A stretch of 64,000 nt of DNA, taken from a virus. This document shows, one piece after another, positions 10,367 through 63,411 of this stretch. Under the pieces are notes generated by a model. It searched no databases, was not told the DNA's origin, and worked only from the letters and a program-made list of their open reading frames with translations. The stretch lies in IMG/VR virus record IMGVR_UViG_3300045988_086557. One strand, written 5' to 3'. A program made the position numbers and the translations under genes. Numbering within the stretch: the stretch's first letter is position 1; each line of letters opens with the position of its first letter.

Positions 10367-10380
10367 AGTTTGACACCTCC

Positions 10381-49287: not shown

Positions 49288-49320
49288 GGAGAGAAGAAGT
49301 GAGTTCTTCTCTCTTTTTCG
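49288..49320 (+). terminator. intrinsic terminator
   Basis: 'GAGAAGAAgtgagTTCTTCTC' + TCTTTTT. Confidence 0.5.
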
Positions 49321-49516: not shown

Positions 49517-49533
49517 TTGTGCAAACTGCACAA
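49517..49533. promoter_or_regulatory. perfect palindromic operator 'TTGTGCAaacTGCACAA' in an ORF-free GC-richer 220-bp region
   Basis: same TTGTGCAA half-site recurs in inverted pairs before 5 other early promoters. Confidence 0.5.
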
Positions 49534-49587
49534 CAAGATGTTATTTATTTTGTGCAAAAGAGAGAGAAAGAAATTTCAAAAAAACTA

Positions 49588-49712
49588 TTGACAAGTGAGC
49601 GTTTTGGTGGTAAACTGGACTTGTCCAGTAGGACAGAGACAAAAGCACAGCACTTTGAAAATTAAAAAATTTCAAAAAAGGTATTGACAAACTGCTAAAG
49701 GTTTGATACAAT
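49588..49712 (+). promoter_or_regulatory. two tandem consensus promoters (TTGACA-N17-TAAACT; TTGACA-N17-TACAAT)
   Basis: hexamers with TGn extended -10; the segment between them resembles the one in the 57.4-57.6 kb promoter array. Confidence 0.55.
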
Positions 49713-49765
49713 ACAGACAGAACAAAAGAGAATCACACCACAAAAAGAAAGGGAGTCAAAAGAGT

Positions 49766-50140
49766 ATGAAAAAGATTGATTTTACCAATGAAGATCGAGC
49801 CATTATTATGGAGTATATGGCGGCTAAGATGGCTAAGTCTGCGGCGGAGGCGGCGGAGAAAGCAGCTAAGGCTAAGGCTAAAGAGCTATTCTCCAGATTA
49901 GGTAAGGCTTTTAAGGCTACGGACAAAACAAGTTATCTATATGGCACGGTACAAATGCAGGGTAAGGCGAAAGCGGTGGTATATAAAGAAACTACCGCAA
50001 AAGGAACGGTTGACTGGAAAGCCTATGCTATGGCATTAGGTGGAACGGAAGCCGAAGCAGAGCAATTCCGCAGACCTTCCGATATTCGTACCTCTTTTGA
50101 TTGGGCGACAAAGACCCAAGAAGAAGAAATTAGAGGATAA
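49766..50140 (+). CDS. hypothetical Ala/Lys-rich protein (124 aa)
   Basis: AAAGGGAG RBS; ends TAA; followed by 14-bp perfect hairpin 50150..50185. Confidence 0.45.
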   Translation: MKKIDFTNEDRAIIMEYMAAKMAKSAAEAAEKAAKAKAKELFSRLGKAFKATDKTSYLYGTVQMQGKAKAVVYKETTAKGTVDWKAYAMALGGTEAEAEQFRRPSDIRTSFDWATKTQEEEIRG

Positions 50141-50407
50141 CAGTTTATAAACCCTGCCTTGCAAAACACAAGGCAAGGCAGGGTTATAATAATTAAAAGA
50201 AAGGGGTATACTATATGTATCAATTACAGGTTTTAGCCAATGAGAAAATGCGCTATTATGAACCATCCACCCTTTCAATGGCAAGATGGAAAGCCAGTCA
50301 CGAGATAGTCAATCCCAATCATTGGATTGTAGATTTATCCAGTGGAGAAATCGTAGATTAAAAAGAAGCTGACCTAACGGCTATACGGGGAGAAAGGATA
50401 AAAGACT

Positions 50408-50710
50408 ATGAACAATTATATTAAGTGGTTCGTTGGGCCTACTTTTAGAAAGCATGAATTTATTAAACTTTTGCGGTATAAGATGAATGTGCGTTCCGCA
50501 GAGGTAGAGGACGGCATCATCTTAGACCTGGATGCTTTTAATGCCATGCGAGTGGCCTATATGCCACACTGGGCTTATATCAATAGAAAGTTTATCAATA
50601 GCAATCTGCATACCAGAATTGCAAGCGAAGATGAATATAAGATTGCTATGGTTGGAGATACAATCGGTACTGAATGGGTTAAAGAACAGGAGGCAAAGAA
50701 ATGGAAATGA
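50408..50710 (+). CDS. hypothetical protein (100 aa)
   Basis: track ORF; ends TGA overlapping next ATG (ATGA). Confidence 0.45.
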   Translation: MNNYIKWFVGPTFRKHEFIKLLRYKMNVRSAEVEDGIILDLDAFNAMRVAYMPHWAYINRKFINSNLHTRIASEDEYKIAMVGDTIGTEWVKEQEAKKWK

Positions 50711-50853
50711 GAATTATTAAGCGGATAGGAGGCGGCATTTGTGCCGCTCTCCTACTCTGGACAGTTCTTAGTTGGGCTGATATAGTGGCGGATAACTGTG
50801 AGCCAAACCCACAGCACAGCGAATATAATATGTTCGTTCTCATGACTAAATAA
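50707..50853 (+). CDS. small membrane peptide (48 aa), translationally coupled
   Basis: 'GGGICAALLLWTVLSWA' hydrophobic core. Confidence 0.35.
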   Translation: MRIIKRIGGGICAALLLWTVLSWADIVADNCEPNPQHSEYNMFVLMTK

Positions 50854-50865
50854 TAGGAGGAAAAA

Positions 50866-51099
50866 ATGTATAGAGGGACTTATATCGACGCCATGGGCCG
50901 CAAGCGCAGAGAGATGGGATATTTCAGTCTTAATAAGCCCACTCTGAATAAACTCCATATACCAGTAATTGTCCAAGCGAGAGATAAGACAAGTGCGGCG
51001 AATAAAATCAATAGGAAATATAAATTGCGTATAAGTCCCAGCAATCTGCGGGAGGTGCCGATGGGCACGGGCTATCTCATGGAAACCATGGAGCTGTAA
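50866..51099 (+). CDS. hypothetical basic protein (77 aa)
   Basis: GGAGG RBS; track ORF. Confidence 0.4.
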   Translation: MYRGTYIDAMGRKRREMGYFSLNKPTLNKLHIPVIVQARDKTSAANKINRKYKLRISPSNLREVPMGTGYLMETMEL

Positions 51100-51112
51100 A
51101 GGAATAATACTT

Positions 51113-51216
51113 GACTGGCAATCTACACAAAGATTGCCAGTCATTTTTATGCACTTTTCCATATTGACTTTTCGCCGGGCCGCCAGCGTGCGCCGCGGCC
51201 CGAATTTTTATTTATT
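51113..51216 (+). terminator. cassette boundary module A: intrinsic terminator + GC-rich 'CGGGCCGc..gCGGCCCG' hairpin/T-tract
   Basis: 'GACTGGCAATC..GATTGCCAGTC'+ATTTTTAT; then 'CGCCGGGCCGCCAGCGTGCGCCGCGGCCCG'+AATTTTTATTT. Confidence 0.65.
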
Positions 51217-51246
51217 CGGCAATTTCAACAATTATATGACCGAAAG

Positions 51247-51313
51247 TTTGTGCAATTCGACGAAAGTTTTTCTCCCGAAATTACTTGACATTCCTTTTCC
51301 CATGTGTTATTAT
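51247..51313 (+). promoter_or_regulatory. module A operator half-site TTGTGCAAT + promoter TTGACA-N17-TATTAT (TGT extended)
   Basis: read directly. Confidence 0.6.
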
Positions 51314-51366
51314 ATACTTGTCCAAAGGGACAGGTCACAAAAAGAATTTGAAAGGAAGTAAAAAAA

Positions 51367-51606
51367 ATGACTTTAGATATGGTTGCTTGGTTACTTTCTC
51401 CGCTTGCAGAAGATACTATGTTCTTTGACGGGGAGGGATTCGAAATTATCAATAAGAATACCCAAGCTCATTACCATGAATTACCTGATGGTAGAATAAC
51501 TCTGGGAGGAGACGTAATCGAGGTATCTAAGGAATGGGTTCTGGGACTTCAGGTAACCGGCATTGAGGCAAGAGATAACAATTTAATCATTTATGTAGAT
51601 GGTTAA
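51367..51606 (+). CDS. hypothetical protein (79 aa)
   Basis: GAAAGGAAG RBS; track ORF. Confidence 0.45.
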   Translation: MTLDMVAWLLSPLAEDTMFFDGEGFEIINKNTQAHYHELPDGRITLGGDVIEVSKEWVLGLQVTGIEARDNNLIIYVDG

Positions 51607-51668
51607 GAAAACTTGCGGGAGTGGAGGCCACAAACCTCTACTCCCCACGATAAAAAGGAGGAATAAAT

Positions 51669-51884
51669 ATGATTGCTGTTATTAAATTTGAAAGTGCAGA
51701 AAAGTCTGTGGAGTTTGGAAACACAATTTGTAATATGGCTGGCTGGTGTTTGGGTCATCCTCTCAATTCCAATGTTACCGGCTGTGTTTGTACACTTGAT
51801 TTTAATACCGGCGACAAGCAAGATAGAGCCTTATATAATTATCTGCTAAAAATTGGAGCTTTCGAGGAGGTGGAACTAAAGTGA
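51669..51884 (+). CDS. hypothetical Cys-containing protein (71 aa)
   Basis: AAAGGAGG RBS; track ORF. Confidence 0.45.
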   Translation: MIAVIKFESAEKSVEFGNTICNMAGWCLGHPLNSNVTGCVCTLDFNTGDKQDRALYNYLLKIGAFEEVELK

Positions 51885-52085
51885 GTATTGAGCGTTTACC
51901 GCATACATATCCTATCGGTTCCACTGTTTGGACAAATAAGGGATATGGCACAGTTCTACTTCACATTGGTAAATACCATCTGGTTTGGCTACAGAGATTA
52001 GGGCTGGCGTAATGCCGGCCCTATTGATTTTTTCAAAAAAATATATTATAATAATTATAGAAAAATAAAGAAAGGAGTTTTTCTA

Positions 52086-52202
52086 ATGACCTTAGAAGTG
52101 CTGAAAGCACTCGCGGTTATTTTGGAGTTCTGTTTGAACTAGGATTCTTGCAAGAATTGTCCTATGTCTCAGTTCTGCCAGAAAATGCCTTGCGAGTGGT
52201 AA
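52086..52202 (+). CDS. small Cys-rich peptide (about 38 aa) with one in-frame TAG
   Basis: 'MTLEVLKALAVILEFCLN.DSCKNCPMSQFCQKMPCEW'. Confidence 0.3.
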
Positions 52203-52294
52203 ATGTTCCTTCCGATTGTTCTAAATCGGCGATTCCCGTGATGGAGTCGTTTTTCGCACGAGCCTAGGTCACTAGAATTTATTTATCAAAATGC

Positions 52295-52525
52295 AAGAAA
52301 CTACTTTCTCTCGCAAATTGGATTCAAGTGGTAGAATTATGATTCCGATTCGTTTGCGTGAACAAATGGGACTTACTTCCGGTTAGGAATACTATTTCAC
52401 TACTATGGTAAAAGATGGCAGAAAATACATCTGCATTGACTGCGGATCGGTTGATTCCTCACTTGAAGAAGCTATGAAAATTATCCAAGCAAACGGATTA
52501 AAGATTGTTGAAAATGCCGATTGAC
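52295..52525 (+). CDS. AbrB-family (swapped-hairpin) transition-state-regulator-like protein, about 76 aa, with one in-frame TAG at codon 32
   Basis: 'RKLDSSGRIMIPIRLREQMGLTSG[TAG]EYYF' aligns with AbrB 'RKVDELGRVVIPIELRRTLGIAEKDALEIYV'; start codon/RBS weak. Confidence 0.5.
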
Positions 52526-52564
52526 TTCTCAAAAGAAAGGGAGTTGTTGGTATGCAGAAATTAA

Positions 52565-52643
52565 TGACCTCCTGAAATTCAGGAGGTTCTTTTTTTATTC
52601 GTTCGCCCGGCCGTGCACCACAGGCGCGGCCGGAATTTTTTAT
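52565..52643 (+). terminator. cassette boundary module B: intrinsic terminator + GC-rich hairpin/T-tract
   Basis: 'ACCTCCTGaaatTCAGGAGGT'+TCTTTTTTT; 'GCCCGGCCGTGCACCACAGGCGCGGCCGG'+AATTTTTT. Confidence 0.65.
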
Positions 52644-52650
52644 CAAGAGG

Positions 52651-52743
52651 CAATTTGCACAATTTTAGGCTCGAATTGTTGTGCAATCTGATGGAAGATT
52701 TTTTCCCAAAATCGCTTGACTTTCTATCTGTTATCTGTTATAC
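52651..52743 (+). promoter_or_regulatory. module B inverted-repeat operator TTGCACAA-N16-TTGTGCAA + promoter TTGACT-N17-TATACT
   Basis: read directly. Confidence 0.6.
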
Positions 52744-52797
52744 TTGTATCATCAAGAGGGGAGAACAAAAGCCCTCGAAACAAAAGGAGAATGAGTT

Positions 52798-53031
52798 ATG
52801 TATCTGGTAATGGCTGACAGTAGAGAAAAGATTATCGGCGTTTCTGATACTGAAACTGGCGCACGCCATGCGGGATGGGACTGGCTCAAGGCCCAGTATT
52901 CCGAAAGCGAGTGGAGCCAAATTCTGGAAGATATGGACTATGAGAATGAAGGGGACTTGCGGCATGACCTTCTCATGGGCGCATATTGGGAAGATTTCGA
53001 TATGGAGATTATCGAGGTTAAGAGGGTATAA
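52798..53031 (+). CDS. hypothetical acidic protein (77 aa)
   Basis: AAAGGAGAATG RBS; track ORF. Confidence 0.45.
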   Translation: MYLVMADSREKIIGVSDTETGARHAGWDWLKAQYSESEWSQILEDMDYENEGDLRHDLLMGAYWEDFDMEIIEVKRV

Positions 53032-53060
53032 ACCCTCTTAACCAGAAAAGGAGTATATAT

Positions 53061-53213
53061 ATGACTACCTTCACAATGATTGTTTTGATTGCGTTTGTGG
53101 CCTGCCTTGCATGGCAGTTAATGGCGGCTGCTCAAAAGAGCTGTATTCGGCTTGAAATCATGTTTGCCGCAGAAATTCTAATGTTCGCATATTTGGCAAA
53201 AAATTTGATGTAA
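53061..53213 (+). CDS. small membrane protein (50 aa)
   Basis: AAAAGGAG RBS; single TM 'MIVLIAFVACLAWQLMAAA'. Confidence 0.4.
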   Translation: MTTFTMIVLIAFVACLAWQLMAAAQKSCIRLEIMFAAEILMFAYLAKNLM

Positions 53214-53217
53214 AGGG

Positions 53218-53246
53218 TTGACAAACCGCTTAAACAGTGGTATAAT
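53218..53246 (+). promoter_or_regulatory. consensus promoter TTGACA-N17-TATAAT (TGg extended)
   Basis: read directly. Confidence 0.6.
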
Positions 53247-53297
53247 CAATAATGTAAAGAGAAGGAAAACTCATTAAACCAGAAAGGAAATATTGCT

Positions 53298-53528
53298 ATG
53301 TATAGAATGACTGAGCAGGATAGACAGGGGATTATTCTTCTGCATAAGACCATGGAGGAGTTCTGCCCAGGAGAAGCAGCACAGGCAATGCTCCAGTCTT
53401 TGGGAAAATTCCTGCGGATCGGCATGTGTACTCCCGATGACGCGGCCGATATTATCAAGGGTATTTTCGATGAGGAAGCCGATAAGACAGTTGATGAAAT
53501 GACTATGATGGATTTACTTTCCTTGTAA
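53298..53528 (+). CDS. hypothetical protein (76 aa)
   Basis: GAAAGGAAA RBS; track ORF. Confidence 0.45.
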   Translation: MYRMTEQDRQGIILLHKTMEEFCPGEAAQAMLQSLGKFLRIGMCTPDDAADIIKGIFDEEADKTVDEMTMMDLLSL

Positions 53529-53536
53529 AAAAGGGG

Positions 53537-53565
53537 TTGACAAACTGCCCCTTCTGTGGTACAAT
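53537..53565 (+). promoter_or_regulatory. consensus promoter TTGACA-N17-TACAAT
   Basis: read directly. Confidence 0.55.
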
Positions 53566-53623
53566 AAGACTATGGAAGGGGCAGCCCCAAAAATAAATTA
53601 AAATAAGAAAGGGAGTTTTAGAA

Positions 53624-54022
53624 ATGCGTGTTACTAAGAGGATTGAAGCCTATATCAATGATGAGGTCAACAAGATTGCGAACGCCAAGCGAGAGGAAAT
53701 CAGAGCCAAGTATGCGGACGCTATGAAAGAGTTTGAGGATTTCATCGAGGAAGGCCGAAAAGAGATTGAGGCGCTGAATACAAGGATTATTGAGCGCGCC
53801 ACAGCGAAGGGATATAAGCTCCGCCGCTATTATGACCAGGAGTGTGCCAAGTCAAATATGTGCAGTCTTTACAACCCCATCAACCAAACGATGGATGAAG
53901 AGCTGTCCACTGTGACAAAGTGGGTAGAGGAAAATGCAAGTCTGATCTGCGTCAAGCTGGAAATGGGCGGCGACATGAAAACTCTGTCTACTCTGCTGGA
54001 CGAACTGCGGAAATCGCTTTAA
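53624..54022 (+). CDS. hypothetical coiled-coil protein (132 aa)
   Basis: AAGGGAG RBS; followed by 8-bp GC hairpin 54031..54067. Confidence 0.45.
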   Translation: MRVTKRIEAYINDEVNKIANAKREEIRAKYADAMKEFEDFIEEGRKEIEALNTRIIERATAKGYKLRRYYDQECAKSNMCSLYNPINQTMDEELSTVTKWVEENASLICVKLEMGGDMKTLSTLLDELRKSL

Positions 54023-54076
54023 GGAAAGGAGGCGCGGGAGTATAGGACTTGTATTCTATGCTCCCGCGATAAAAAA

Positions 54077-54535
54077 ATGAGAGCTGTTGGTATTGTTCGA
54101 CATATTGATGACCTAGGGCGTATTGTTATTCCTAGAGAAATTCGTAGGAGTATGCGAATTAGAGAAGGCGACCCTATGGAAATTTTTCTTGATGGCGACT
54201 GTATAGCCTTCAAGAAATATTCTCCACTATCTTTTTTCGTTGACCATGCCCACGAAATGCGAAATGCCCTTTCTGTTAATCACATTTCCGCGGCGATCTT
54301 CGATTCAGATAAACTTTTAAGCGGGCCTAGTTCTTTCAAAATTTCTATACCACCAGATGAATGGAGTAATATCAGCCAACCTGCGACAGCGTGGAAATCT
54401 ATGTTTATTACTCCCATTTTTTCTGATGGGGGACAAATTGGATTCATTTGTTACAAAAATCTGCACAATGATGAATCTATTCACGAAATGGTTAAATTAG
54501 TCGCAAGGTATTTTTCAAATATGGCTGAAAGATAA
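54077..54535 (+). CDS. SpoVT-like regulator: AbrB-type N-terminal DNA-binding domain + truncated GAF-like C-terminal domain (152 aa)
   Basis: 'GIVRHIDDLGRIVIPREIRRSMRIREGDPMEIFLDGDCIAFKKYSP' is near-identical in pattern to B. subtilis SpoVT 'GIVRRIDDLGRVVIPKEIRRTLRIREGDPLEIFVDRDGEVILKKYSP'. Confidence 0.75.
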   Translation: MRAVGIVRHIDDLGRIVIPREIRRSMRIREGDPMEIFLDGDCIAFKKYSPLSFFVDHAHEMRNALSVNHISAAIFDSDKLLSGPSSFKISIPPDEWSNISQPATAWKSMFITPIFSDGGQIGFICYKNLHNDESIHEMVKLVARYFSNMAER

Positions 54536-54619
54536 AAGAAGGGCTTCGGCCCTTCTTTTTTATACACTAAAAATTCGACGGCGCGCTGACGCACGCGGCG
54601 CGCCGAGTTTTCTTATTTG
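54535..54619 (+). terminator. cassette boundary module C: intrinsic terminator + GC-rich hairpin/T-tract
   Basis: 'GAAGGGCttcgGCCCTTC'+TTTTTTAT; 'CGACGGCGCGCTGACGCACGCGGCGCGCCG'+AGTTTTCTTATTT. Confidence 0.65.
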
Positions 54620-54648
54620 TAAGTTCTACACAATTTTTGTCTTGAAAT

Positions 54649-54695
54649 CTTGTGCAATTCGCCATCTTGCAATTATCCTTAAATTATGGTATTAT
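54649..54695 (+). promoter_or_regulatory. module C operator TTGTGCAAT(tcgccatc)TTGCAAT + promoter TTGCAA-N17-TATTAT (TGg extended)
   Basis: read directly. Confidence 0.55.
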
Positions 54696-54722
54696 TAGTA
54701 CAGAAAAAAGGAGGGGTACTAA

Positions 54723-54971
54723 ATGAAACCTTCAAAGTTTATTCAGCCCAATGAATACTTAACCGTGGCTGAAATTTATCGTAGACAATTCGGGCATACT
54801 ACTACCCCGGTTAATTATGAGGTTTATATACGAACTGTGCTTTTACAAGACCCTCTGATCTATATAGATTGTATGTCAATGCCTTATAAGGTATATCGGC
54901 GTAAAACTTTTTTTGAAAAACTTGTTGACAAGGTGTGCAATAAATGGTATAATAAAACAAAAGGAGATTGA
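54723..54971 (+). CDS. hypothetical protein (82 aa); its 3' end contains the promoter of the next gene
   Basis: AAGGAGGGG RBS; internal TTGACA-N17-TATAAT at 54925..54953. Confidence 0.4.
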   Translation: MKPSKFIQPNEYLTVAEIYRRQFGHTTTPVNYEVYIRTVLLQDPLIYIDCMSMPYKVYRRKTFFEKLVDKVCNKWYNKTKGD

Positions 54972-54977
54972 TATACA

Positions 54978-55439
54978 ATGACTAAAAAAATGCTCTGCTT
55001 TGACATGGATGGAACTATCGCGGACTTGTATGCAGTCCCTAATTGGCTCGAAAAACTCCGCAATGGAGACCCTACCCCATTCCGAGACGCGGCCCCTATG
55101 TGGGACATGGAAGCCCTCCGAAATGCGCTTCTAAAGGCAATCAATAACGGATGGGAAATTAGAGTAATTACATGGCTACCACCTGAAAGCACTCCCGAAT
55201 ATAAGAAAGCAGTCACAGCCGCAAAAAAGGAATGGCTTGCAAGGTATAAATTTCCGGCCCATAAATGTCATTGTGTGGCATACGGAACGACCAAAGCCAA
55301 ATGTGTATTCCGTAGTTTCTATGAACCGCCGTTTATCCTTTTTGATGATAATGATAAAATTAGGTACGGTTGGCATTTAGGAGATACAATAAATCCAGGA
55401 GAGACAGACATAATCGAATATATCAACAATTTGGACTGA
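54978..55439 (+). CDS. HAD-superfamily 5'(3')-deoxyribonucleotidase-like protein (153 aa)
   Basis: motif I 'LCFDMDGTIADL', downstream 'FILFDDNDK'; overall NT5C-like layout. Confidence 0.55.
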   Translation: MTKKMLCFDMDGTIADLYAVPNWLEKLRNGDPTPFRDAAPMWDMEALRNALLKAINNGWEIRVITWLPPESTPEYKKAVTAAKKEWLARYKFPAHKCHCVAYGTTKAKCVFRSFYEPPFILFDDNDKIRYGWHLGDTINPGETDIIEYINNLD

Positions 55440-55441
55440 AT

Positions 55442-55466
55442 GGGGCGGGGTGAAAATCCCCGCCCC
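55442..55466. repeat. hairpin 'GGGGCGGGGtgaaaatCCCCGCCCC', copy 1 of 2 (second at 58085..58107)
   Basis: identical 23-nt core at both sites, each immediately after a gene stop. Confidence 0.5.
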
Positions 55467-55488
55467 ACAAAGAAAGGGAGTTTTGTCA

Positions 55489-55683
55489 ATGCAAATTAAG
55501 AAAGTTAATAGGCTCATTTTTGATTCAACGGAAAAACAAACATTGAGAAATGCTTCAATTCTCATAAGCCAGATTAGCCGGAGCATGGAAGAGAATGAAA
55601 TTGATGATGATTTTCCTGTCTCTCTTGATGATCTGGTATATGGGATAGATGAACTAATCAATAGGGAATATATTGGATATTAA
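55489..55683 (+). CDS. hypothetical acidic protein (64 aa)
   Basis: AAAGGGAG RBS. Confidence 0.4.
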   Translation: MQIKKVNRLIFDSTEKQTLRNASILISQISRSMEENEIDDDFPVSLDDLVYGIDELINREYIGY

Positions 55684-55688
55684 AAATA

Positions 55689-55773
55689 CCCCTCTCATTA
55701 TTGAGAGGGGTATTTTTTTATTGTCGTTTGGGCGGCCCGCGCTTGGGCGGTGCGGGCCGAATTTTTTTCTTTG
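55689..55773 (+). terminator. cassette boundary module D: intrinsic terminator + GC-rich hairpin/T-tract
   Basis: 'CCCCTCTCattattGAGAGGGG'+TATTTTTTTA; 'GGCGGCCCGCGCTTGGGCGGTGCGGGCCG'+AATTTTTTTCTTT. Confidence 0.65.
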
Positions 55774-55778
55774 TAGAT

Positions 55779-55849
55779 GTTGCACAATTTTGGCGGCGAA
55801 AAGTTGTGCAATTTGCCATCTTGCAATTCTCCCAAAAGTATGGTATTAT
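55779..55849 (+). promoter_or_regulatory. module D inverted-repeat operator TTGCACAA-N19-TTGTGCAA + promoter TTGCAA-N17-TATTAT
   Basis: read directly. Confidence 0.6.
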
Positions 55850-55980
55850 TATCATGTCAGGAGGGAGAGGCCAAGAAATCAAGAGGTCGCGAACTCTTAG
55901 AAAGTAAAGGAAGCAAAGTATACGGCTAAATTTCAATTAGCTACTGAAAGGATTAAGCCAAAAAAACTTTCCTTTTCCTC
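55850..55980 (+). ncRNA. candidate small non-coding transcript (about 130 nt) between the module D promoter and a second promoter
   Basis: consensus promoter upstream, no ORF longer than 17 codons, no RBS; second promoter TTGACA-N17-TATAAT at 55981..56009 serves the exonuclease gene. Confidence 0.25.
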
Positions 55981-56043
55981 TTGACACCAAGCCTTAAATG
56001 TGCTATAATAATACCATCAAGAGAAGAAAGGACTTGATAGATT

Positions 56044-56868
56044 ATGATTGATAAGCGCAGACATTATGTGCTGGTGGTTGACACTGAAACCGCCAACACA
56101 CTAACCGAAACCGTTCCCGCTGAAATCGGAGAGGATGGGGAGATTATTACTCCTGAGCGTGTCCGCATGGATATGTCAAATGTACTGGTATATGACTGCG
56201 GTTGGGCTGTAGTAGATACCAAGGGCAATATTTACGAAACTGCAAGTTTTGTAAATCGGGACATTTTCAATGACGAGCGAGACTTAATGCGGACGGCCTA
56301 TTATAATTGGAAAATCCCCCGCTATGTTGAGGAATTGCGGGCCGGCACTCGCAAGATGGCTACTACTTATGAAATCCGTCAGGCTATGCTTGATACTATC
56401 GAGCGATACGGAATTAAGGAAGTGGCTGCTTATAATGCCCGGTTTGACGATAACGCTCTGCGGGTCACTCAACGATGGGTCACTTGCTCTAAGTTTCGCT
56501 ACTGGTTCCCGTTTGACAGTGTGGAAATTTGGGATATTATGAAGATGACACAAGATGTTATCTGCAATATGCCCACTTATAAGAAATTCTGTCAGGAAAA
56601 TGGATATATCCAAGCCAATGGCGTTCCCCGTAAGACTGCGGAAATCGTGTGGCGGTTTATCTCTGGAAATACCGATTTTGAGGAAAGTCATACGGGGCTT
56701 GAAGATGTTCTCATTGAGGCGGAAATCATGTGGTACTGTATGCGCCAACATAAGCCCATGAGAAAGGCCCTGTATGAGAATAGGAAGGAATTTCCTCCTA
56801 TGACAGACTTTCAGCGTCAGCTTTCCGCAAGTATGCGGAATGTACCTACTATTCGAGTCGGGGCTTAA
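56044..56868 (+). CDS. DnaQ-like DEDDh 3'-5' exonuclease (274 aa)
   Basis: Exo I 'VVDTETA', Exo II 'AAYNARFDDNAL', Exo III 'SHTGLEDVLIEAEI'. Confidence 0.65.
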   Translation: MIDKRRHYVLVVDTETANTLTETVPAEIGEDGEIITPERVRMDMSNVLVYDCGWAVVDTKGNIYETASFVNRDIFNDERDLMRTAYYNWKIPRYVEELRAGTRKMATTYEIRQAMLDTIERYGIKEVAAYNARFDDNALRVTQRWVTCSKFRYWFPFDSVEIWDIMKMTQDVICNMPTYKKFCQENGYIQANGVPRKTAEIVWRFISGNTDFEESHTGLEDVLIEAEIMWYCMRQHKPMRKALYENRKEFPPMTDFQRQLSASMRNVPTIRVGA

Positions 56869-56911
56869 CGCCCCGCTCCATAAAAAATATCTGAAAAGTA
56901 TGTAAAAAACC

Positions 56912-56940
56912 TTGACAGCTTCACCGAATTGTGGTATAAT
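56912..56940 (+). promoter_or_regulatory. consensus promoter TTGACA-N17-TATAAT (TGg extended)
   Basis: read directly. Confidence 0.6.
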
Positions 56941-56987
56941 TTAATCATCAAGAGGGAATAACCCTCATAAAAGAAAGGGAGTTTTGT

Positions 56988-57138
56988 TATGATGAATTTC
57001 TATTTTAAGACTGCGGCAGGCCATGTGTTTGCGGGTGTCGGCAAGGATGTTGACCGTGCCCGTTCTGATGCTAAGCGCAAGGCCGGTTCTCTTTGGTCGC
57101 CTTCGGCCAAGTGCTTCAAAATCGGGAACGCTATTTAA
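56988..57138 (+). CDS. small basic protein (50 aa)
   Basis: AAAGGGAG RBS. Confidence 0.4.
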
Positions 57139-57153
57139 GACGTTTCCGACTAA

Positions 57154-57232
57154 AAGAGGGGTTTTACCCCTCTTTTTTTTATACAAAATTGAGCGGGTCG
57201 CGCAGGAGCGGCGCGACCCGAGTTTTTCTTTG
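57154..57232 (+). terminator. cassette boundary module E: intrinsic terminator + GC-rich hairpin/T-tract
   Basis: 'AGAGGGGttttaCCCCTCT'+TTTTTTTTA; 'CGGGTCGCGCAGGAGCGGCGCGACCCG'+AGTTTTTCTTT. Confidence 0.65.
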
Positions 57233-57236
57233 TAAA

Positions 57237-57624
57237 TGTTGCACAAAAATTTCAACCCCGTTTTGTGTAAAATTCTGCACAAAAACTTTCTCCCAAAATT
57301 CCGATTTTTGTGCAATTTGACGCTTGCAATCTGCTTTTGCTTGTGGTAAAATACATTCAGAAAGTGAGAGAGACGAACGGCAGACAGCGACAGCGAATTT
57401 CTCAAAAATCTTTCAAGAATCTCTTGACAAGCCTTTGAAGATGTGCTATAATAAGTACAGAAAACAAGGCAATGCACCTTGAAAATTAAATAAAAAGGGC
57501 TTGACAAACTTTCCAAAGTGTGTTACACTATAAGGGAGGTTGAGAGGGCAAACAAGTAAAGAGCAAAAGTTCTTGAAAAAAGTTTGAAAAACCTCTTGAC
57601 AAGTACCAAATAGTGTGGTACAAT
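57237..57624 (+). promoter_or_regulatory. module E: operator pairs (TTGCACAA...TTGTGTAA, TCTGCACAA...TTGTGCAAT) followed by four tandem consensus promoters (-35 at 57324, 57425, 57501, 57596)
   Basis: four TTG(A/C)CA-N17-TAnAnT hexamer pairs, each with TGn extended -10, within 300 bp upstream of the gene at 57673. Confidence 0.6.
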
Positions 57625-57672
57625 ATAATCAAAGGACAAGGACAGTCCTAAAAACCAGAAAGGATGTATATT

Positions 57673-58074
57673 ATGGACGAGAAGAAAATCCGCATTACTA
57701 AGGCCCAGCGTTTTGAGGACATTAAGGCCCTCTTGACTGACGGCGAGGTAAAGTATGGCACTACCATCGAGGTGGCTATTACTGTCATTGACCATGAGCT
57801 GGAGCTTCTGCGTAAGAAGAATAGCTCTAGCGGTGACAAGAAGCTGACTCCCACCCAGCAGGAGAACGAGAATTTTAAGGAGCAGATTATGGAGTATCTG
57901 GCTGGTCTGGATGCCGATACCGATGGCGTAACCTGCACGGAAATTTTCAAGGCTATTCCTGATCTGACGGCCTATTCTAACCAGAAGGTCGCCGCCCTTG
58001 TGCGGCAGTTGAAACTCGATGGTCGAGTGGTCTGCACGGAGAAGAAGGGCAAGTCCCTCTTTAAGATGGCGTAA
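57673..58074 (+). CDS. putative winged-helix DNA-binding regulator (133 aa)
   Basis: C-terminal 'GVTCTEIFKAIPDLTAYSNQKVAALVRQLKLDGRVVCTEKKGKSLF' wHTH-like; AAAGGA RBS; heavily promoted. Confidence 0.4.
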   Translation: MDEKKIRITKAQRFEDIKALLTDGEVKYGTTIEVAITVIDHELELLRKKNSSSGDKKLTPTQQENENFKEQIMEYLAGLDADTDGVTCTEIFKAIPDLTAYSNQKVAALVRQLKLDGRVVCTEKKGKSLFKMA

Positions 58075-58212
58075 CCCCGTATAGGGCGGGGTGAAAATCC
58101 CCGCCCTAACTTATAATATGGGGGTGATATTATATCCAGTCGCATTAGTGACGCTGAACGGATTGCAAGGTATAAAGCCCTACAATTAACGCCGGAACAG
58201 GAGGCGGAGTTA

Positions 58213-58530
58213 TTGGCCTATGATAAAGCGGTAGAGGCTGATAAAAAGACTGAATACGATTTACCGCCAGATAAGGCAAAAATTGCCCAAAAGTTTGCCC
58301 ATGCGGGGACGAGAAAGGCTCCAACGGCATATAAGTTTACGCCCCGGCAACGCAAGCCAAACGCCACGAAAGGCGGTATAATCGCGGAATTGGCAGAGTT
58401 TTTGGAAAAAAACAGTCAATTCTCTATCGCTGACTTGTCTATTACTAACAAAGAAAGGCAGATTGCGTTTTCTATTGGTGGGGATAGTTTCGAGTTGACG
58501 CTTGTGCAAAAGCGTAAGCCGAAGAAATAA
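58213..58530 (+). CDS. hypothetical basic protein (about 105 aa; TTG start in track)
   Basis: track ORF; followed by GC hairpin 'GGGGTAGGgtcggCCTACCCC'. Confidence 0.35.
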   Translation: MAYDKAVEADKKTEYDLPPDKAKIAQKFAHAGTRKAPTAYKFTPRQRKPNATKGGIIAELAEFLEKNSQFSIADLSITNKERQIAFSIGGDSFELTLVQKRKPKK

Positions 58531-58586
58531 CGGGGTAGGGTCGGCCTACCCCGGCCCTACCAGAAAAGAGGCAAGTTATAGTTAGT

Positions 58587-58937
58587 TTGCAGACAAGGAG
58601 AAAAGAGTTCCTATATGTCGGACATTATATCGACAAAAAGGGGCGCTATATTCTCAAGATTGGTACGACAAATGACCTTGAACGCAGAGCCGCAGAGCAT
58701 ACGAGAAATTATAAGCGGGCGCCAGATTACACCATGCCGGAAGATGGTTCCTTTATCTATGATTGGCATATCAAACTTTCCAAGTATAATACCCTACGAT
58801 ACGAGGATGTAAACCGGACTTTGTGGCAGAATATGGGAATTGGTCGTTTTATCAGAAATGACCGTTTCTTGTGCGACACTCCCCCGGCCATGGTTACGGT
58901 GGTTATTCGCAAGGCATATCCAATAATTCTCAACTAA
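58587..58937 (+). CDS. GIY-YIG / T5orf172-like nuclease-domain protein (116 aa)
   Basis: 'FLYVGHYIDKKGRYILKIGTTNDLERRAAEH' matches the GIY...YIG..T.N...RR..EH pattern; preferred over overlapping 65-aa ORF 58615..58812. Confidence 0.5.
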   Translation: MQTRRKEFLYVGHYIDKKGRYILKIGTTNDLERRAAEHTRNYKRAPDYTMPEDGSFIYDWHIKLSKYNTLRYEDVNRTLWQNMGIGRFIRNDRFLCDTPPAMVTVVIRKAYPIILN

Positions 58938-58942
58938 AGAAA

Positions 58943-59023
58943 AATCTCCCCTTATGGGGAGATTTTTTTTATGCAAAATTTTGAGCGGACCGCTTGCGTG
59001 CGCCGCGGTCCGAATTTTTCTTC
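58943..59023 (+). terminator. cassette boundary module F: intrinsic terminator + GC-rich hairpin/T-tract
   Basis: 'ATCTCCCCttatGGGGAGAT'+TTTTTTTTAT; 'GCGGACCGCTTGCGTGCGCCGCGGTCCG'+AATTTTTCTTC. Confidence 0.65.
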
Positions 59024-59055
59024 TATTGTCATTTTCAACAATTTTGAATTGAAAA

Positions 59056-59102
59056 TTTGTGCAACTTGACAGCTTGACTTTCTCCCGAAAATGTGGTATC
59101 AT
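59056..59102 (+). promoter_or_regulatory. module F operator half-site TTTGTGCAAC + promoter TTGACT-N17-TATCAT (TGg extended)
   Basis: read directly. Confidence 0.55.
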
Positions 59103-59129
59103 TTAACCATGGAAGGGAGGTAAAAGAAA

Positions 59130-59270
59130 TGATGAATAAACTTAAAAACTCTATCATTCGTTTCTTAATTAAAAGAACTTGCCTTGACATTTCCACTATT
59201 TATTCGGTATTAGGACAAAGTACAGAAAAAGAAATGAAATTTTATATTAAAGATTATTACAGGAGATAAA
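59130..59270 (+). CDS. small protein (46 aa)
   Basis: GGAAGGGAGG RBS. Confidence 0.4.
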
Positions 59271-59274
59271 AGAA

Positions 59275-59727
59275 ATGGAAAGCTTAAAACAATTTCGTGT
59301 TAATTTTCAAGTTACCTTTTGGTGTGAAGGTCGCAAGGGTATCTTCTCTAAGAAGCCTTATAAATTTACGGTATCATTTCGTGATGATATTATGCTTTCT
59401 ACCTTTTTAATCAATGCTCGAACCGAAAAAGAAGCGGTTAAAACTGGAAAAAACTATGTTGAAAATATAGTTCAATGTTGGGTTGAACAGTCAGAAGAAA
59501 ATCAAGCCACCGGCGAATATATGATTTTAACTGGAAATATGGCTGATACAAAAAGATTTGAGTGGTCGCCTAAAATCTACGCCATTACTGGGTATGAAAT
59601 TAAATTTATTTCCTGCGAAATGGTTTGCGACTGGGCAAAAGAAAGGGTTGAGAGAGCGGCAAGAGAACTGACTATGGAGCAATTTAAGCAAGTTTTTAGT
59701 GAAATTCCGGCTGAGATTTTTCATTAA
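59275..59727 (+). CDS. hypothetical protein (150 aa)
   Basis: AGGAGA RBS; track ORF. Confidence 0.5.
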   Translation: MESLKQFRVNFQVTFWCEGRKGIFSKKPYKFTVSFRDDIMLSTFLINARTEKEAVKTGKNYVENIVQCWVEQSEENQATGEYMILTGNMADTKRFEWSPKIYAITGYEIKFISCEMVCDWAKERVERAARELTMEQFKQVFSEIPAEIFH

Positions 59728-59744
59728 AGAAAGGAGATTTTTAG

Positions 59745-59996
59745 ATGGTTGATATTGATTTCGACAAACTGAATGATGAGGAGTTGCAATGGTTGAGTGC
59801 TACCGCCTATAAAGAAGTGGCACTTAGAAAACAAAAAGCGCAAGAGAAAGATTGGAATAGTCTAATCGAAAAGATAGACGAGTATTGTAAAAAGTATGGA
59901 GAAATAACTATCGTTGGATATGGAGATGAATTTGTTTTTGAATCTCCGATACGGTGTAACTGTATAGGAGAAATCAATTTAGAAAACGAGGATTAA
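59745..59996 (+). CDS. hypothetical acidic protein (83 aa)
   Basis: AAAGGAGA RBS; track ORF. Confidence 0.5.
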   Translation: MVDIDFDKLNDEELQWLSATAYKEVALRKQKAQEKDWNSLIEKIDEYCKKYGEITIVGYGDEFVFESPIRCNCIGEINLENED

Positions 59997-60000
59997 GAAA

Positions 60001-60080
60001 AGAGAGGCTTTGGCCTCTCTTTTTATTTTATATTTCCTAAACTCGACGGGCCGGTCGCGGGCGACTCGGCCCGAGTTTTC
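60001..60080 (+). terminator. cassette boundary module G: intrinsic terminator + GC-rich hairpin (no promoter follows)
   Basis: 'AGAGAGGCtttgGCCTCTCT'+TTTTATTTT; 'CGACGGGCCGGTCGCGGGCGACTCGGCCCG'+AGTTTTCC. Confidence 0.6.
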
Positions 60081-61392
60081 CCGATCGGACCATAGCGCAA
60101 AATTTTCATAGCAACTTGGCCATAACGCAACTTCATAGCGATTTTCCCAAAATTCATAACGCCCTCTTCCAAACACCGATCGGCCCTACTTTACTTCTTT
60201 CTTTATCTAGCTCCGATCGGTCCAGCAATATTGGCTCTCTCGTCCAATTTTTTATAATAAAAATCTTAAAATTGTCAAGTATTCACAGTACCAAAACTTT
60301 CTAAAATACAACTAACAATAGCAAAGATATAGCTATGAAAAACAAATACGACCAGAGATTTCTTTCGCGGAACCGATCGGTTTAACACAATTTTATGATA
60401 AAAATAGCTCAAAAATAGAGATTTTAGCTAGATAAACCGATCGGCCCGCGATCTTTTACCTCTTGTTATCGCAAAATATAACAAAAAACCTCTAAAATCT
60501 TGCAAAAATGCGCGTTTTTCTAACAAATTTACTTAAAAATAAGCAAAAAATGCCTCGTTTTTCTCAAAATTTCTTGATATTCACAGAATTAAAACTATTA
60601 AAGATACAGCAAACAATAGCAAAGATGTTGCTAACTATTTGAAAAGAAAAAATCTTTTCCGCGGGATTCCGTTAAAGCGATCTTTTTATCTAGACCCGAT
60701 CGGTTCGACAATATATAAAAAATATAATATAATATATACATAAGATAAAGAAAAGGAGGATTTTAGTTTAAGAAGCATCATAACGCTTTTTCTAACTAAA
60801 AGAACTTATTATGAATAGTTATGAGATTATGATTCGTGATGCAATGCAGAATGGTTCCACTCAGGAGGAGATTGCAAAGGCATTTACCGATGCTATGAAT
60901 AGAATCTCCGAGGCTAATGCCGCAGACCGTGAGCGAGATAATCTTCTGGATGAGATTGAATCTACTTTTTATGGCAATGTTGATGATTTGTCTCTCACTG
61001 AGGATGACGTTGGCCGCGTGGCTGCGCTGGTTTATAGCAAGAGCAATCCTAAGTGGACAGCAAATGATATTAAGCAGTTTATGCAAGCTATGACTGTAAC
61101 TGCTAAGACTTCCGCTCGAGTAGTCAATGCAAAGAGTCTTGATGAAGTAATTGACATTGCTGTTGACTCTATTTCTGATGCTCTCGCAGGTAGTATGAAT
61201 AAGGCTAAGACTGATGAGGACAATATCATGGAGTTTTTGAGACATTTGAAGTAAGATAAACAAGAGGAAAAAGATTAAAGGAGAGAAGTATTGTAGCTTC
61301 TCTCCTTTTTTATATATATTATAATCGCGGAAGGCTAGGTTTACGATCGTTGTGACGAGTGTTGTGATGGTTCGTACCTAGACCCGATCGGC
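60051..61392. repeat. ORF-free repeat region: 7 copies of the palindrome CCGATCGG (some extended to AACCGATCGGTT), two about 75-bp direct repeats (60281..60360 and 60583..60660), 'TCATAGC/CATAACGC' short repeats
   Basis: CCGATCGG at about 60063, 60178, 60226, 60376, 60433, 60699 and 61380; it spans the gene 60811..61254. Confidence 0.6.
60811..61254 (+). CDS. hypothetical acidic protein (147 aa)
   Basis: track ORF; followed by terminator 'GGAGAGAAGtattgtaGCTTCTCTCC'+TTTTTTAT at 61276..61312. Confidence 0.5.
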   Translation: MNSYEIMIRDAMQNGSTQEEIAKAFTDAMNRISEANAADRERDNLLDEIESTFYGNVDDLSLTEDDVGRVAALVYSKSNPKWTANDIKQFMQAMTVTAKTSARVVNAKSLDEVIDIAVDSISDALAGSMNKAKTDEDNIMEFLRHLK

Positions 61393-61399
61393 ACCCAAC

Positions 61400-61600
61400 T
61401 CTACTATTTTATCAATTTCTATTATTTTTTTCTATTATTCTTACTAAAACTCTATTATTATTTCTTTCTCTATCCATCTTTATTAGATCTCTCTATCTCT
61501 CTCTTCTTATATCCTTACTCTCTCTCTTATCTCCTATTTTTTTAATTTGAAATTCTAAATCCCTTCTTCTCAAGATTTTTTAAATCGAAATTTCTAAAAC
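61400..61600 (+). repeat. about 200-bp strand-asymmetric polypyrimidine (CT-rich, about 85% C+T) low-complexity tract
   Basis: read directly; 'tctctctatctctctcttcttatatccttactctctctcttatctcc'. Confidence 0.6.
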
Positions 61601-61626
61601 CTTCCTTAATATGGCTACGAAGTAGC
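61601..61626. other. perfect palindrome 'AATATGGCTAC gaa GTAGCCATATT'
   Basis: 11-bp arms, 3-nt spacer, overlapping the 3' end of the minus-strand gene. Confidence 0.5.
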
Positions 61627-61989
61627 CATATTAATCTCCGCTATTCTCTCCATAAGATTATAAATTCTAGATTCTTTCTTGCTTTCTAACCGACTTTTTA
61701 ATTCTTCTACTTCCGCGGTTAGCTTAGCTATGGAGTCCTCTAAATCTTGAGTAAAAATATCTATATTTATCCTATTGCGATATTTATCTACTATAATTCT
61801 ACTTCTTCCTTCTACCTTTAAATTCTCTTCCATCCATTCTTCTAACTTATCATCAAATTTATTCTTTACAAAATATACCTTGCCTTCTTCTTCATCATCT
61901 TTAAAGTAAACCAATACTGGTTCATACTAATTTAATCCATTTTTCATGAATTGATAATTTTCTACCTTAATCGGTTTAAATACTTCCAT
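61615..61989 (-). CDS. hypothetical coiled-coil protein (about 124 aa, 1 in-frame TAG)
   Basis: track ORF 61615..61914 extends upstream through TAG to an ATG (MEVFKPIKVENYQFMKNGLN.YEP...). Confidence 0.4.
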
Positions 61990-62009
61990 GCTTTAATCCT
62001 CCTATTCAT

Positions 62010-62335
62010 CGCTTTTTCACAAATACATGAAAAAGTCGCGACTGTTATCTTAACTCTGTTATCTAATATATGTTATATTTGTTGTATTGTCAGAATACCA
62101 TGAAATGGATTTTTATTTACTTTCATGGTATTGTCAGAATACTATGTCATAGTATTGTTGGAAAGCTATGAAAATCCTTTTTATTTAATTTCATAGTATT
62201 ATCAGAATACCATGAAAACAATTTCATAGCTTTCCAACAAATACATGAAAATTTCATAGCTTTTTCACAATATGATGAAATCATAGTATTCTCAGAAATA
62301 CATGAAATTTTTCATAGTATTGCAGAAATACGATT
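62010..62335. repeat. iteron array: about 9 copies, both orientations, of a 22-28-bp unit ('TTTCATAG(T/C)ATT(G/C)TCAGAA(A)TAC(C)ATGAAAA'); candidate replication origin
   Basis: 'tattgtcagaataccatgaaa', 'tttcatggtattgtcagaatac', 'ttggaaagctatgaaaa' / 'tttcatagctttccaa' (inverted pair), 'catagtattctcagaaatacatgaaa' etc.; ORF-free. Confidence 0.6.
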
Positions 62336-62727
62336 AAAAAGAAAATTTCTCTCCGTCTGGAGCTATATAATTATACTTGTCGTCGTCACTATCAATAGGA
62401 ATCTCGTAAAAATCGTAATATCCTTTTCTCTCAACTGGAACTAAATATCCCTTTTTTACCAATCCATCTATTGCACTTGTATATTTCGCTCTCTTTATAC
62501 CAAGCTCTTTTTCTATAATAGTAGGCCCAAAATCATAATCAATTAACTTCTCAGATTGACTAGCAAAAAATATCCACAAAGAAAACTCTCCATCTGTCAA
62601 CTCTCTACGGGCCGCAAATAACGCTTCCTTATTAATCCTAGCATATATATTATTAGTATCACATGGTTCCTTATGAATATGATTAATAGTTCGCTAATTA
62701 GGACTTCTTCTTTTGTCTGCCATGGCA
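62334..62727 (-). CDS. winged-helix DNA-binding protein, candidate replication initiator/origin-binding protein (about 131 aa, 1 in-frame TAG)
   Basis: 'FSLWIFFASQSEKLIDYDFGPTIIEKELGIKRAKYTSAIDGLVKKGYLV' wHTH; 3' end abuts the iteron array; upstream part joined via TAG (MADKRRSPN.RTINHI...). Confidence 0.45.
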
Positions 62728-62936
62728 ATCATCCTCCAATAGCGAACTTATCCCTTTATACTTCTAAACTGCATCCCTTAAATCCTAACTATCTTCAAAA
62801 AGATAAACATTTAACCAAGGTTTCTAAACATTAGGAACAGTTCCAACAATAATAAAACCAAGATCACAGAGTTTGCGTGCTAACTTTACTGTAAAAACTT
62901 TATAAGTATCATTAGTCATTTAGTTTAATCTCCTTT

Positions 62937-63070
62937 AGTCTACTTTATTTTTCTCAATATATTCTTTTATAGCCCATCTAATAAGCTATGACAATTTAAT
63001 ATCGTGCTCTCTACAATACTTTTCTAACTCTTGTTTTTCTTCCTCAGAAATACGAGCTGCTATCTAAGCC
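62937..63070 (-). CDS. ribbon-helix-helix (CopG/Arc-like) regulator, about 44 aa, 2 in-frame TAG
   Basis: 'RISEEEKQELEKYCREHDIKLS.LIRWAIKEYIEK' RHH pattern. Confidence 0.5.
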
Positions 63071-63099
63071 ATATAAATCACCTCTCTACTATATCTTTA

Positions 63100-63411
63100 C
63101 TTTTATTATAACATAATTAATTGCGGTTGTCCAACTTTTTTAATATTTTTTTATTACAATTATACTATGTCCACAATATCAGATTTTAGACCAACCATTA
63201 GAAATTTTTGGACACTCGTTAGAAAAATTCGGACAAAAATGCCTATATGACCATTTTATTAAAATTCCTGCGGAATTGCCAATTTTTCTGCCTAAAAAAT
63301 TCCCGCATCCGTGAGAAATTATGACGGTTCGTTATAATCCATAAGATTTACTTGCGTATCTTAATAAAATATGGTAATATATTTATATAAATAAGAAAAG
63401 AGGTTTTACTC
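63100..63411. promoter_or_regulatory. divergent control region with 4 TGTCCA/TGGACA repeats and a rightward TTGCGT-N17-TAATAT (TGg) promoter
   Basis: 'ggttgtccaac', 'atgtccacaat', 'tttggacactcg', 'ttcggacaaaaa'; promoter hexamers just before the RBS of 63412. Confidence 0.45.

Follow-up and report, generated by a model that had tools for sequence, protein, structure and literature searches.

In the OL/OR region of phage lambda, CI is bound near −42 of the promoter PRM, and the promoters of acr-aca (anti-CRISPR) loci carry inverted-repeat operators. Here we describe a cluster of seven copies of the 8-bp palindrome CCGATCGG in a 64,000-nt stretch of the IMG/VR virus record IMGVR_UViG_3300045988_086557 (hereafter the window; related loci and contigs are labelled L plus a number). 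The record stems from a ~150-kb gut phage with TAG as a sense codon, whose family is found in Clostridia-type bins. The cluster resembles phage operator arrays in that multiple copies of one palindrome stand around early promoters, with one copy abutting a −35 hexamer at about −40, and in that distant copies could loop. As at acr loci, the gene that would be controlled is small, acidic, early and hypervariable. In contrast to these systems, the putative binder is not co-transcribed with this gene, the repeated unit is an exact 8-mer without extended half-sites, and the seven sites are spread across 1.3 kb, some at a considerable distance from any promoter, with no lysogeny module evident. The element is of a known kind, an operator or binding-site array that by itself reveals no new kind of mechanism, whereas the motif, the phage family and the binder are undescribed.

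CCGATCGG matched the window eight times, against 0.16 matches expected, and none of 100 dinucleotide-preserving shuffles attained this number (CCGTACGG would be a mutated form of the motif). Seven of the eight copies were confined to 1.31 kb (60081-61391) of mostly non-coding DNA, where they were dispersed by 37-688 bp rather than arranged in tandem. This bears out a preliminary description of the window, which had reported seven palindromes in ~1.35 kb. Site 1 (60081-60088) lies directly 3′ of a GC-rich hairpin, and the motif count placed sites 2 and 3 at 60176-60183 and 60213-60220. Sites 4 (60373-60380) and 5 (60437-60444) form an inverted pair, in the contexts CGCGGAA-site-TTTA and TAAA-site-CCCGCG, respectively, and site 4 was kept in all relatives. 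Site 6 (60696-60703) ends 1 nt 5′ of the −35 hexamer of the predicted promoter of a gene that we call ORF147, with its centre at about −40.5. Site 7 (61384-61391) is followed by CACC. Degenerate copies were found at 60677 (GCGATC) and 61344 (CGATCG). The eighth exact copy is isolated (47974-47981), inside a PARG-like gene (47772-48539). It is probably incidental, but the earlier statement that the motif occurs nowhere else in the window needs to be corrected accordingly. No further CCGATCGG was present in ~10 kb past the window end, as read from a 99.8%-identical relative. The extension to AACCGATCGGTT that had been ascribed to some copies applied to site 4 and to none of the others. A full-text search for CCGATCGG returned nothing relevant, and DNA similarity searches of phage and plasmid records with 59900-61700 as the query found no match.

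All seven sites were retained in four close relatives. The conserved block begins at the hairpin (60047) and ends shortly after site 7 (~61402), which marks its right edge, and the flanks beyond it diverge. The non-coding part of the block was ~99% identical in close relatives and more conserved than ORF147 within it. In the divergent L011, for example, ORF147 was 46% identical while the non-coding flanks were still 85-100% identical. The best-conserved non-coding stretches were two predicted promoters on the plus strand, namely the promoter-like P_b (60231-60258; TTGGCT, 16-nt spacer, TATAAT; a consensus prediction) and the ORF147 promoter (60705-60733; TCGACA, 17-nt spacer, TATAAT; 11 of 12 consensus matches), the latter being invariant in relatives. 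We considered a Spo0A box at the −35 element of this promoter (TTCGACA) and rejected it, as it was not kept: other lineages have TTGGCA, TTGCAA or TTGAAA. A strong Shine-Dalgarno-like AAGGAGG, also invariant in relatives, was noted at 60753-60759, 50 nt 5′ of the ORF147 start codon and without a start codon at the usual distance.

A broader set of 78 loci with 33-98% identity was collected by a motif scan combined with a search using the neighbouring exonuclease-like gene (56044-56868). Wherever the exonuclease was 73% identical or more, the full-length loci all had a CCGATCGG cluster of three to seven sites. The cluster was also found in the distant L287, L322, L326, L327 (the same contig as L060), L328, L329 and L113, where the exonuclease was 33-55% identical and the GC content 33-49%. 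The minimal form was that of L287, with only two sites, flanking the gene. Other searches added little: scanning viral contigs for CCGATCGG pairs at a distance of 27-57 nt yielded mostly chance pairs in GC-rich phages but fortuitously recovered L060 and L113, a scan with the 15-mer AACAATAGCAAAGAT gave random matches only, and a locus search by ORF147 alignment found close relatives only.

In these distant lineages the position of the sites relative to promoters was often kept, all promoters being predicted. The arrangement of hairpin and site 1 was retained in L113, L267 and L326. In L267 and L113 a perfect TTGACA-17-TATAAT promoter has its +1 approximately where the hairpin begins, such that the centre of site 1 lies at +33.5 from the upstream promoter in the L267 clade and at +45.5 in L113. 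CATATGC repeats with a TTTTCCCGAAA box, the equivalents of 60091-60163 of the window, were present in L113, L267, L322 and L328. Among the non-coding stretches of the L267, L265 and L113 lineages, the P_b homologue (TTGAYW-17-TATTAT) was conserved best. At the ORF147 promoter, the site centre was located at −40.5, −39.5, −40.5 and −43.5 in four lineages and at −60.5 in L265, and the site-6 geometry recurred in the L260, L267 and L287 lineages. L327 has a site that occupies the whole 17-nt spacer of a TTGACA...TATAAT promoter upstream of a paralogue of a conserved 136-aa early protein. Further conserved sub-modules in the distant relatives were the ORF147 homologue with its terminator and a GACGATAACGGTGACGA-like motif ahead of site 7 and CACCTCAC, the site 7-CACCTCAC combination being present in L060, L113 and L265. 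We regard the cluster as a genuine, conserved functional element of the phage family.

The preliminary description had proposed, among other things, that the palindromes are repeated protein-binding sites. This general idea gained ground: the exact 8-mers were kept where the neighbouring proteins are 33-55% identical, the sites often recur at similar positions relative to predicted promoters, and other exact palindromes are arrayed at the same junction in sister lineages. More specifically, we tentatively interpret the CCGATCGG array as binding sites for a dimeric phage protein controlling transcription of the hypervariable early gene ORF147 and of adjacent non-coding transcripts, an interpretation to which we give somewhat less than an even chance of being right. 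A dimeric phage-encoded protein would recognise CCGATCGG, and the sites together would constitute a transcription-control hub at the end of the early gene array. Binding could be cooperative, possibly with looping over ~700 bp between sites 6 and 7, and would set the level or timing of ORF147 and of a non-coding transcript from P_b. A protein bound at about −40 could block the −35 hexamer or, alternatively, interact with sigma. Conceivably, binding may also insulate the unit from the convergent leftward operon with its in-frame TAG codons. If this interpretation is correct, the array belongs to a small, testable regulatory unit that comprises a single motif, two promoters and a hypervariable early gene, the gene maybe being under arms-race selection. 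The array would then be a conserved and easily recognised landmark of the early-region boundary in a widespread family of uncultured, stop-codon-recoded gut phages.

ORF147 (60811-61254, plus strand) is TAG-free, encodes an acidic product and has 123 database homologues. The region had been called ORF-poor; this holds for 60030-60810 and 61310-61605 but not for the interval occupied by this real gene. Its predicted model was all-helical (pLDDT 80), and no Foldseek match with E < 0.4 was obtained for it. Between strains the gene is hypervariable, with in-frame indels, and its homologues co-occur with CCGATCGG sites. It is more probable that ORF147 is subject to the regulation than that it encodes the regulator. 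In L060, an ORF147-like gene (10081-10569) lies on the opposite strand with respect to site 7 and the early genes, which was the sole structural inversion seen in the family.

Several observations weigh against transcriptional control by a CCGATCGG-binding protein. The promoters are consensus predictions only, and the promoter geometry is not universal, since L113 has no site beside its ORF147-like promoter. Individual sites were lost even among close relatives: site 3 was deleted in L008 and L009, and site 2 was mutated in L010, which shows that site 2 is individually dispensable and that some strains do without site 3. Furthermore, the flanks of CCGATCGG carry little information (111 distinct site contexts across the family), and an exact 8-mer with uninformative flanks is unusual for helix-turn-helix operators. 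In sister lineages with arrays of another palindrome, ACGTATACGT, there is no ORF147-like gene between the copies, and such an array looks more like a structural nucleoprotein array (origin or centromere) than like a promoter operator. Lastly, a cognate DNA-binding protein was not found among the candidates examined.

These candidates are each supported by weak evidence. One is the conserved 136-aa early protein (57664-58074), a likely winged-helix protein; the winged-helix assignment of this family rests on sub-threshold Pfam matches, a further point against the proposed control. Another is a 45-aa Arc/CopG-like ribbon-helix-helix (RHH) protein encoded just past the window end, as seen in the 99.8%-identical relative. 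An RHH binder would recall the met-boxes of MetJ and the arrays of Arc, CopG, omega and ParR/ParG, which likewise consist of repeated 8-bp palindromes. In line with this, the RHH gene is ~2 kb away from the cluster and sister lineages show 13-bp tandem arrangements; however, the sites in the window are dispersed and non-tandem, and the RHH gene is missing from some motif-bearing lineages. The remaining candidates are proteins of the leftward operon. Among these, DUF5659 (62698-62919) was present in 18 of ~24 full-length loci with sites versus 1 of 45 without, this one (L331) carrying an array of a different palindrome, TCTGTACAGA; the DUF5659 model showed no DNA-binding fold. A basic protein of 105 aa (58213-58530), an AbrB-like protein (54077-54535) and a 132-aa protein (62334-62732) are further possible binders.

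The same early/leftward junction harbours other palindromes in sister lineages. Arrays of 7-23 copies of ACGTATACGT, some in 13-bp tandem, were found in L313, L314, L333 (10420-11210) and L334, with up to 23 copies in 800 bp. The TCTGTACAGA array in L331 comprises six copies, likewise with no gene between them, and CTGTATACAG stands beside CCGATCGG in L322 and L328. The half-sites are related across lineages (CCGA, CGTA, CTGTA, CTGT), and differing palindromes with related half-sites are a pattern expected from co-evolution of a binding protein and its sites, a link that we infer from the sequences. If so, CCGATCGG, ACGTATACGT, TCTGTACAGA and CTGTATACAG would represent a natural changed-specificity series, useful for finding the binder and for studying protein-site co-evolution. 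A more speculative and rather improbable extension is that the arrays (CCGA/TCGG, ACGTA/TACGT, CTGTA/TACAG and TCTGT/ACAGA) form a 'palindrome code' of TAG-recoded 100-190-kb Clostridia phages that organises the boundary between standard-code and TAG-containing genes. The reader of such a code would be a small, fast-co-evolving DNA-binding protein, and the array would act as a timing switch between two translation regimes or as a control element of a hypervariable counter-defence locus (ORF147). Separately, we observed pairs of longer palindromes (AAATTTcCCGATCGGgAAATTT), ~49-50 nt apart, in the unrelated AT-rich viral contigs L023, L025, L078, L080, L116 and L129. These are built around the same core and look like operator pairs of another phage group.

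The main rival to transcriptional control is a replication origin or partition-type (centromere-like) site, where an initiator or centromere-binding protein from the leftward operon would bind the palindromes. We consider this possible but rather unlikely. The cluster lies at a non-coding junction of convergent gene blocks that is packed with direct and inverted repeats, and the palindromes, short direct repeats, AT-rich stretches and adjacent variable tandem repeats could all be bound elements. Iteron origins and centromeres such as parC, parS and sopC share with this locus a repeat-dense non-coding junction beside genes for small DNA-binding proteins, as well as a lineage-specific motif. The strain-variable tandem repeat between site 7 and the leftward operon diverges along with the operon, and the sister lineage with up to 23 palindromes in 800 bp has no gene among them. 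In addition, relatives were found as whole, non-integrated 148-164-kb contigs in genome bins labelled Oscillospiraceae, Eubacterium, Lachnospiraceae and others. The leftward operon encodes the Arc/CopG-like RHH protein and a winged-helix protein, and larger winged-helix homologues in L327 and L328 matched replication-initiator, O-like, DnaD-like, Rep3 and ScpB profiles. However, these profile matches were weak, the 132-aa protein of the window fell below the Pfam cut-off, and the proteins of the leftward operon vary or are absent among lineages with identical CCGATCGG; unlike in iteron and centromere systems, the motif is constant while the neighbouring operon changes. Neither an initiator nor a partition ATPase was confidently identified among nearby genes, no partition NTPase (ParA, ParM, TubZ) was present among the genes within ~10 kb, and the GC skew in the window merely tracks gene orientation. 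Nor does an origin or partition site require the recurrent site-promoter positions that were observed. Another rival is a role at the RNA level, in which palindrome pairs and the GC hairpin would act as terminators or attenuators, or as structured non-coding RNAs transcribed from P_b and the pre-hairpin promoter. This role appears improbable to us. The GC hairpin with its U-run at +1 to +35 of a strong promoter in L267 and L113 is reminiscent of a promoter-proximal terminator, and the motif is at the centre of terminator-like hairpins in the unrelated phage L030. As RNA, sites 4 and 5 could form an 18-bp stem followed by AUCUUUU, with a folding z of −3.98 that was driven by the inverted pair; two other segments (z = −1.2 and −2.4) folded no better or slightly better than shuffles. 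Yet CCGAUCGG by itself is unable to form a hairpin, the flanks that extend the stem are not conserved between lineages, and sites 1, 6 and 7 are isolated with no partner nearby. Rfam gave no match at gathering scores in the window, and a permissive scan of 59900-61700 produced chance-level matches only.

The remaining explanations concern DNA processing and modification. If a terminase small subunit bound the palindromes, the region could be a packaging start (pac-like) or a genome terminus, which we deem very improbable. The comparison is with the pac site of phage P1, where seven GATC-containing hexamers are located in 162 bp and methylation controls cleavage. The present cluster likewise consists of seven GATC-containing palindromic elements, but these span 1.3 kb, no terminase gene adjoins them (putative terminase genes appear to be ~15 kb distant), and the motifs of sister lineages lack GATC. 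Ends of 8 of 28 related contigs and of four Logan contigs fell in the ~1.8-kb region, far above chance, and near-full-length contigs of 133-148 kb were among them. These ends were scattered, however: some coincided with site 1, and others fell behind site 2 or site 3, within ORF147, or either 40 or ~500 nt past site 7. Several were in the tandem repeat or the hypervariable gene, and many other contigs read straight through. Assembly breaks due to strain mixtures or repeats would account for the ends better than a unique terminus, although some real DNA ends are conceivable. Even more doubtful, and not supported, is a role as serine-recombinase crossover sites, a candidate of the preliminary description. 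Under this role the small serine recombinase (138-809) could invert inter-site segments, the hypervariable ORF147 among them, or exchange them as cassettes. The description also pointed to a variant repeat resembling the 3′ end of the recombinase gene, and this resemblance is partly upheld: the degenerate site-bearing unit GCGGGATTCCGTTAAAGCGATCTTTTT (60661-60687, plus strand; partly deleted in L011) matched 149-175 at 24 of 27 positions, its best match outside the cluster, but with a borderline E of ~0.07 in a search of the window only. As in hix, gix and cix sites of serine invertases, imperfect palindromes with an A-tract, CC, core, GG and T-tract coincide with a small serine recombinase in the genome, and the AAACC-GATC-GGTTT half-site layout may loosely recall hix/gix sites. 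The region is also structurally plastic, with a unit duplication and a 1-kb cassette indel, and in the distant L060/L327 the ORF147-like gene has the reverse orientation with respect to site 7. Nevertheless, ~45 related loci were colinear, with no inverted or permuted inter-site segment, and the only 'inverted' matches were the 8-mers themselves. L060 lacks a site at the other end of the inverted gene. Most sites lack the structure of such crossover sites, in which two 12-bp half-sites surround a 2-bp core to give about 26-28 bp, and the flanks beyond the 8-mer are uninformative. The recombinase gene, moreover, neighbours tail-fibre-like genes at a distance of 60 kb from the cluster, and 30-nt inverted repeats of its own flank it. 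The cassette indel coincides with repeated GC hairpins and not with CCGATCGG: the 1029-bp cassette (59018-60046), with genes 59275-59727 and 59745-59996, is absent from L001 and L013, and its junction lies inside hairpin copies 6/7, which indicates that the hairpins rather than the palindromes mediate its gain and loss. The least probable explanation, which we can hardly credit, is that the sites are targets of a methyltransferase or restriction-modification system, with a methylation-sensitive switch operating through GATC or CGATCG at their centre. Short palindromes that are exact while their flanks carry no information are typical of restriction-modification sites, and the motif contains GATC and CGATCG. 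Against this, the 10-bp palindromes of the sister lineages are devoid of GATC, no methyltransferase was present among the genes examined, and the clustering at promoters would be left unexplained.

Between and around the sites, the block contains further elements on the plus strand. Its left edge is formed by the GC-rich hairpin CGGGCCGGTCGCGGGCGACTCGGCCCG (60047-60073) followed by GAGTTTT, which together span 60047-60079 and were 100% conserved in all close relatives. A terminator is predicted just upstream, at 59997-60024. Between sites 1 and 2, five CATAGCGCAA-like short direct repeats and a TTTTCCCAAAAT box (60141-60153) were read from the sequence (60091-60163). The ~75-bp direct repeats that had been placed at 60281 and 60583 are real, with two copies of 72 nt (A, 60264-60335; B, 60562-60633) that are 75% identical; neither copy ends next to a site, however: site 4 follows copy A at a distance of 38 nt and site 6 follows copy B at 63 nt, and an extension of the repeats has to be gapped to include them. 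A 16-codon micro-ORF that ends at site 4 (60335-60385) is unlikely to be coding: it has no ribosome-binding site, and L011 has an in-frame TAG. Downstream of ORF147 lies a predicted intrinsic terminator (61277-61308), and then a conserved leader of site 7 (CGCGGAAGGCTAGGTTTACGATCGTTGTGACGAG...CCTAGAC; 61326-61383) akin to the GACGATAACGGTGACGA motif found in distant lineages. Beyond site 7, a CT-rich, G-poor spacer (61392-61605) with a variable-number tandem repeat of CTACTATTTTATCAATTT-type units diverges between strains, and many assemblies break here. The units directly 3′ of site 7 (61392-61480) were strain-dependent, CTACTATTTTATCAATTT and CTCTTCCCTATTTTAT being examples, and four independent assemblies (L008, L009, L010 and L012) stop inside the tandem repeat.

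The hairpin at site 1 is the seventh of a series. Copies of it end at 51196, 52627, 54599, 55753, 57214, 59006 and 60067, as parts of an early intergenic module that occurs seven times in 51120-60080, each time preceding one or two small genes with their own terminators. Modules 1-6 open with the terminator of the upstream gene and the GC hairpin plus U-run. Next come a TTGCACAA...TTGTGCAA inverted repeat and a TTTCTCCCGAAAAT box, and a strong sigma-70-type promoter then leads into the small early gene. The TTGCACAA/TTGTGCAA 8-mer occurs 13 times in the window, against 2 expected, and the inverted repeat is operator-like. The palindrome cluster is the seventh, atypical module, at the end of the TAG-free early array; it retains the hairpin and the TTTTCCCAAAAT box, while CCGATCGG sites and the five CATAGCGCAA-like repeats replace the TTGCACAA repeats. 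An HDV-like (theta) ribozyme in the GC hairpins was considered and dropped, as these are simple bulged hairpins with no Rfam match.

The genetic code of the phage became apparent from its reading frames. Long ORFs are few in the window under the standard code, whereas reading TAG as sense yields contiguous genes, from which we conclude that the phage is TAG-recoded. ORFs of 150 codons or more added up to 17.8 kb in the window and to 58.4 kb once TAG was read through, and one ORF of 2908 codons contained 101 in-frame TAGs. A late block on the minus strand (8456-46000) is rich in in-frame TAG, the early block on the plus strand (~47000-61300) is TAG-free, and a small leftward operon (61606-63300) has in-frame TAG again. 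TAG as a sense codon was also seen across 1-7600 and 61606-62919. No tRNA genes were found in the window. Metagenomic relatives are common, as contigs of ~96-148 kb. A perfect 13-bp inverted repeat, TTAATATGGCTAC-gaa-GTAGCCATATTAA (61606-61634), overlaps the 3′ end of a leftward 127-codon gene.

Other genes of the window were noted in passing. The early genes at 47772-48961 encode a protein with a microbial-type PARG (ADP-ribose hydrolase) domain and a PTH2 peptidyl-tRNA hydrolase, the latter being noteworthy in a phage that reassigns a stop codon, and a protein with an AbrB/MazE fold is encoded at 54077-54535. The serine recombinase gene (138-809, minus strand; Resolvase domain, six in-frame TAGs) and an 82-aa ORF are situated between 30-nt inverted repeats (110-139 and 1192-1221, 83% complementary), which may delimit an invertible segment near the tail-fibre-like genes. 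Finally, 2471-6497 is likely a diversity-generating retroelement, in which a reverse transcriptase gene (5280-6497; RVT_1 domain, YMDD motif) is accompanied by genes for a small basic protein (4346-4840) and for a surface-type protein of 597 codons (2471-4264).

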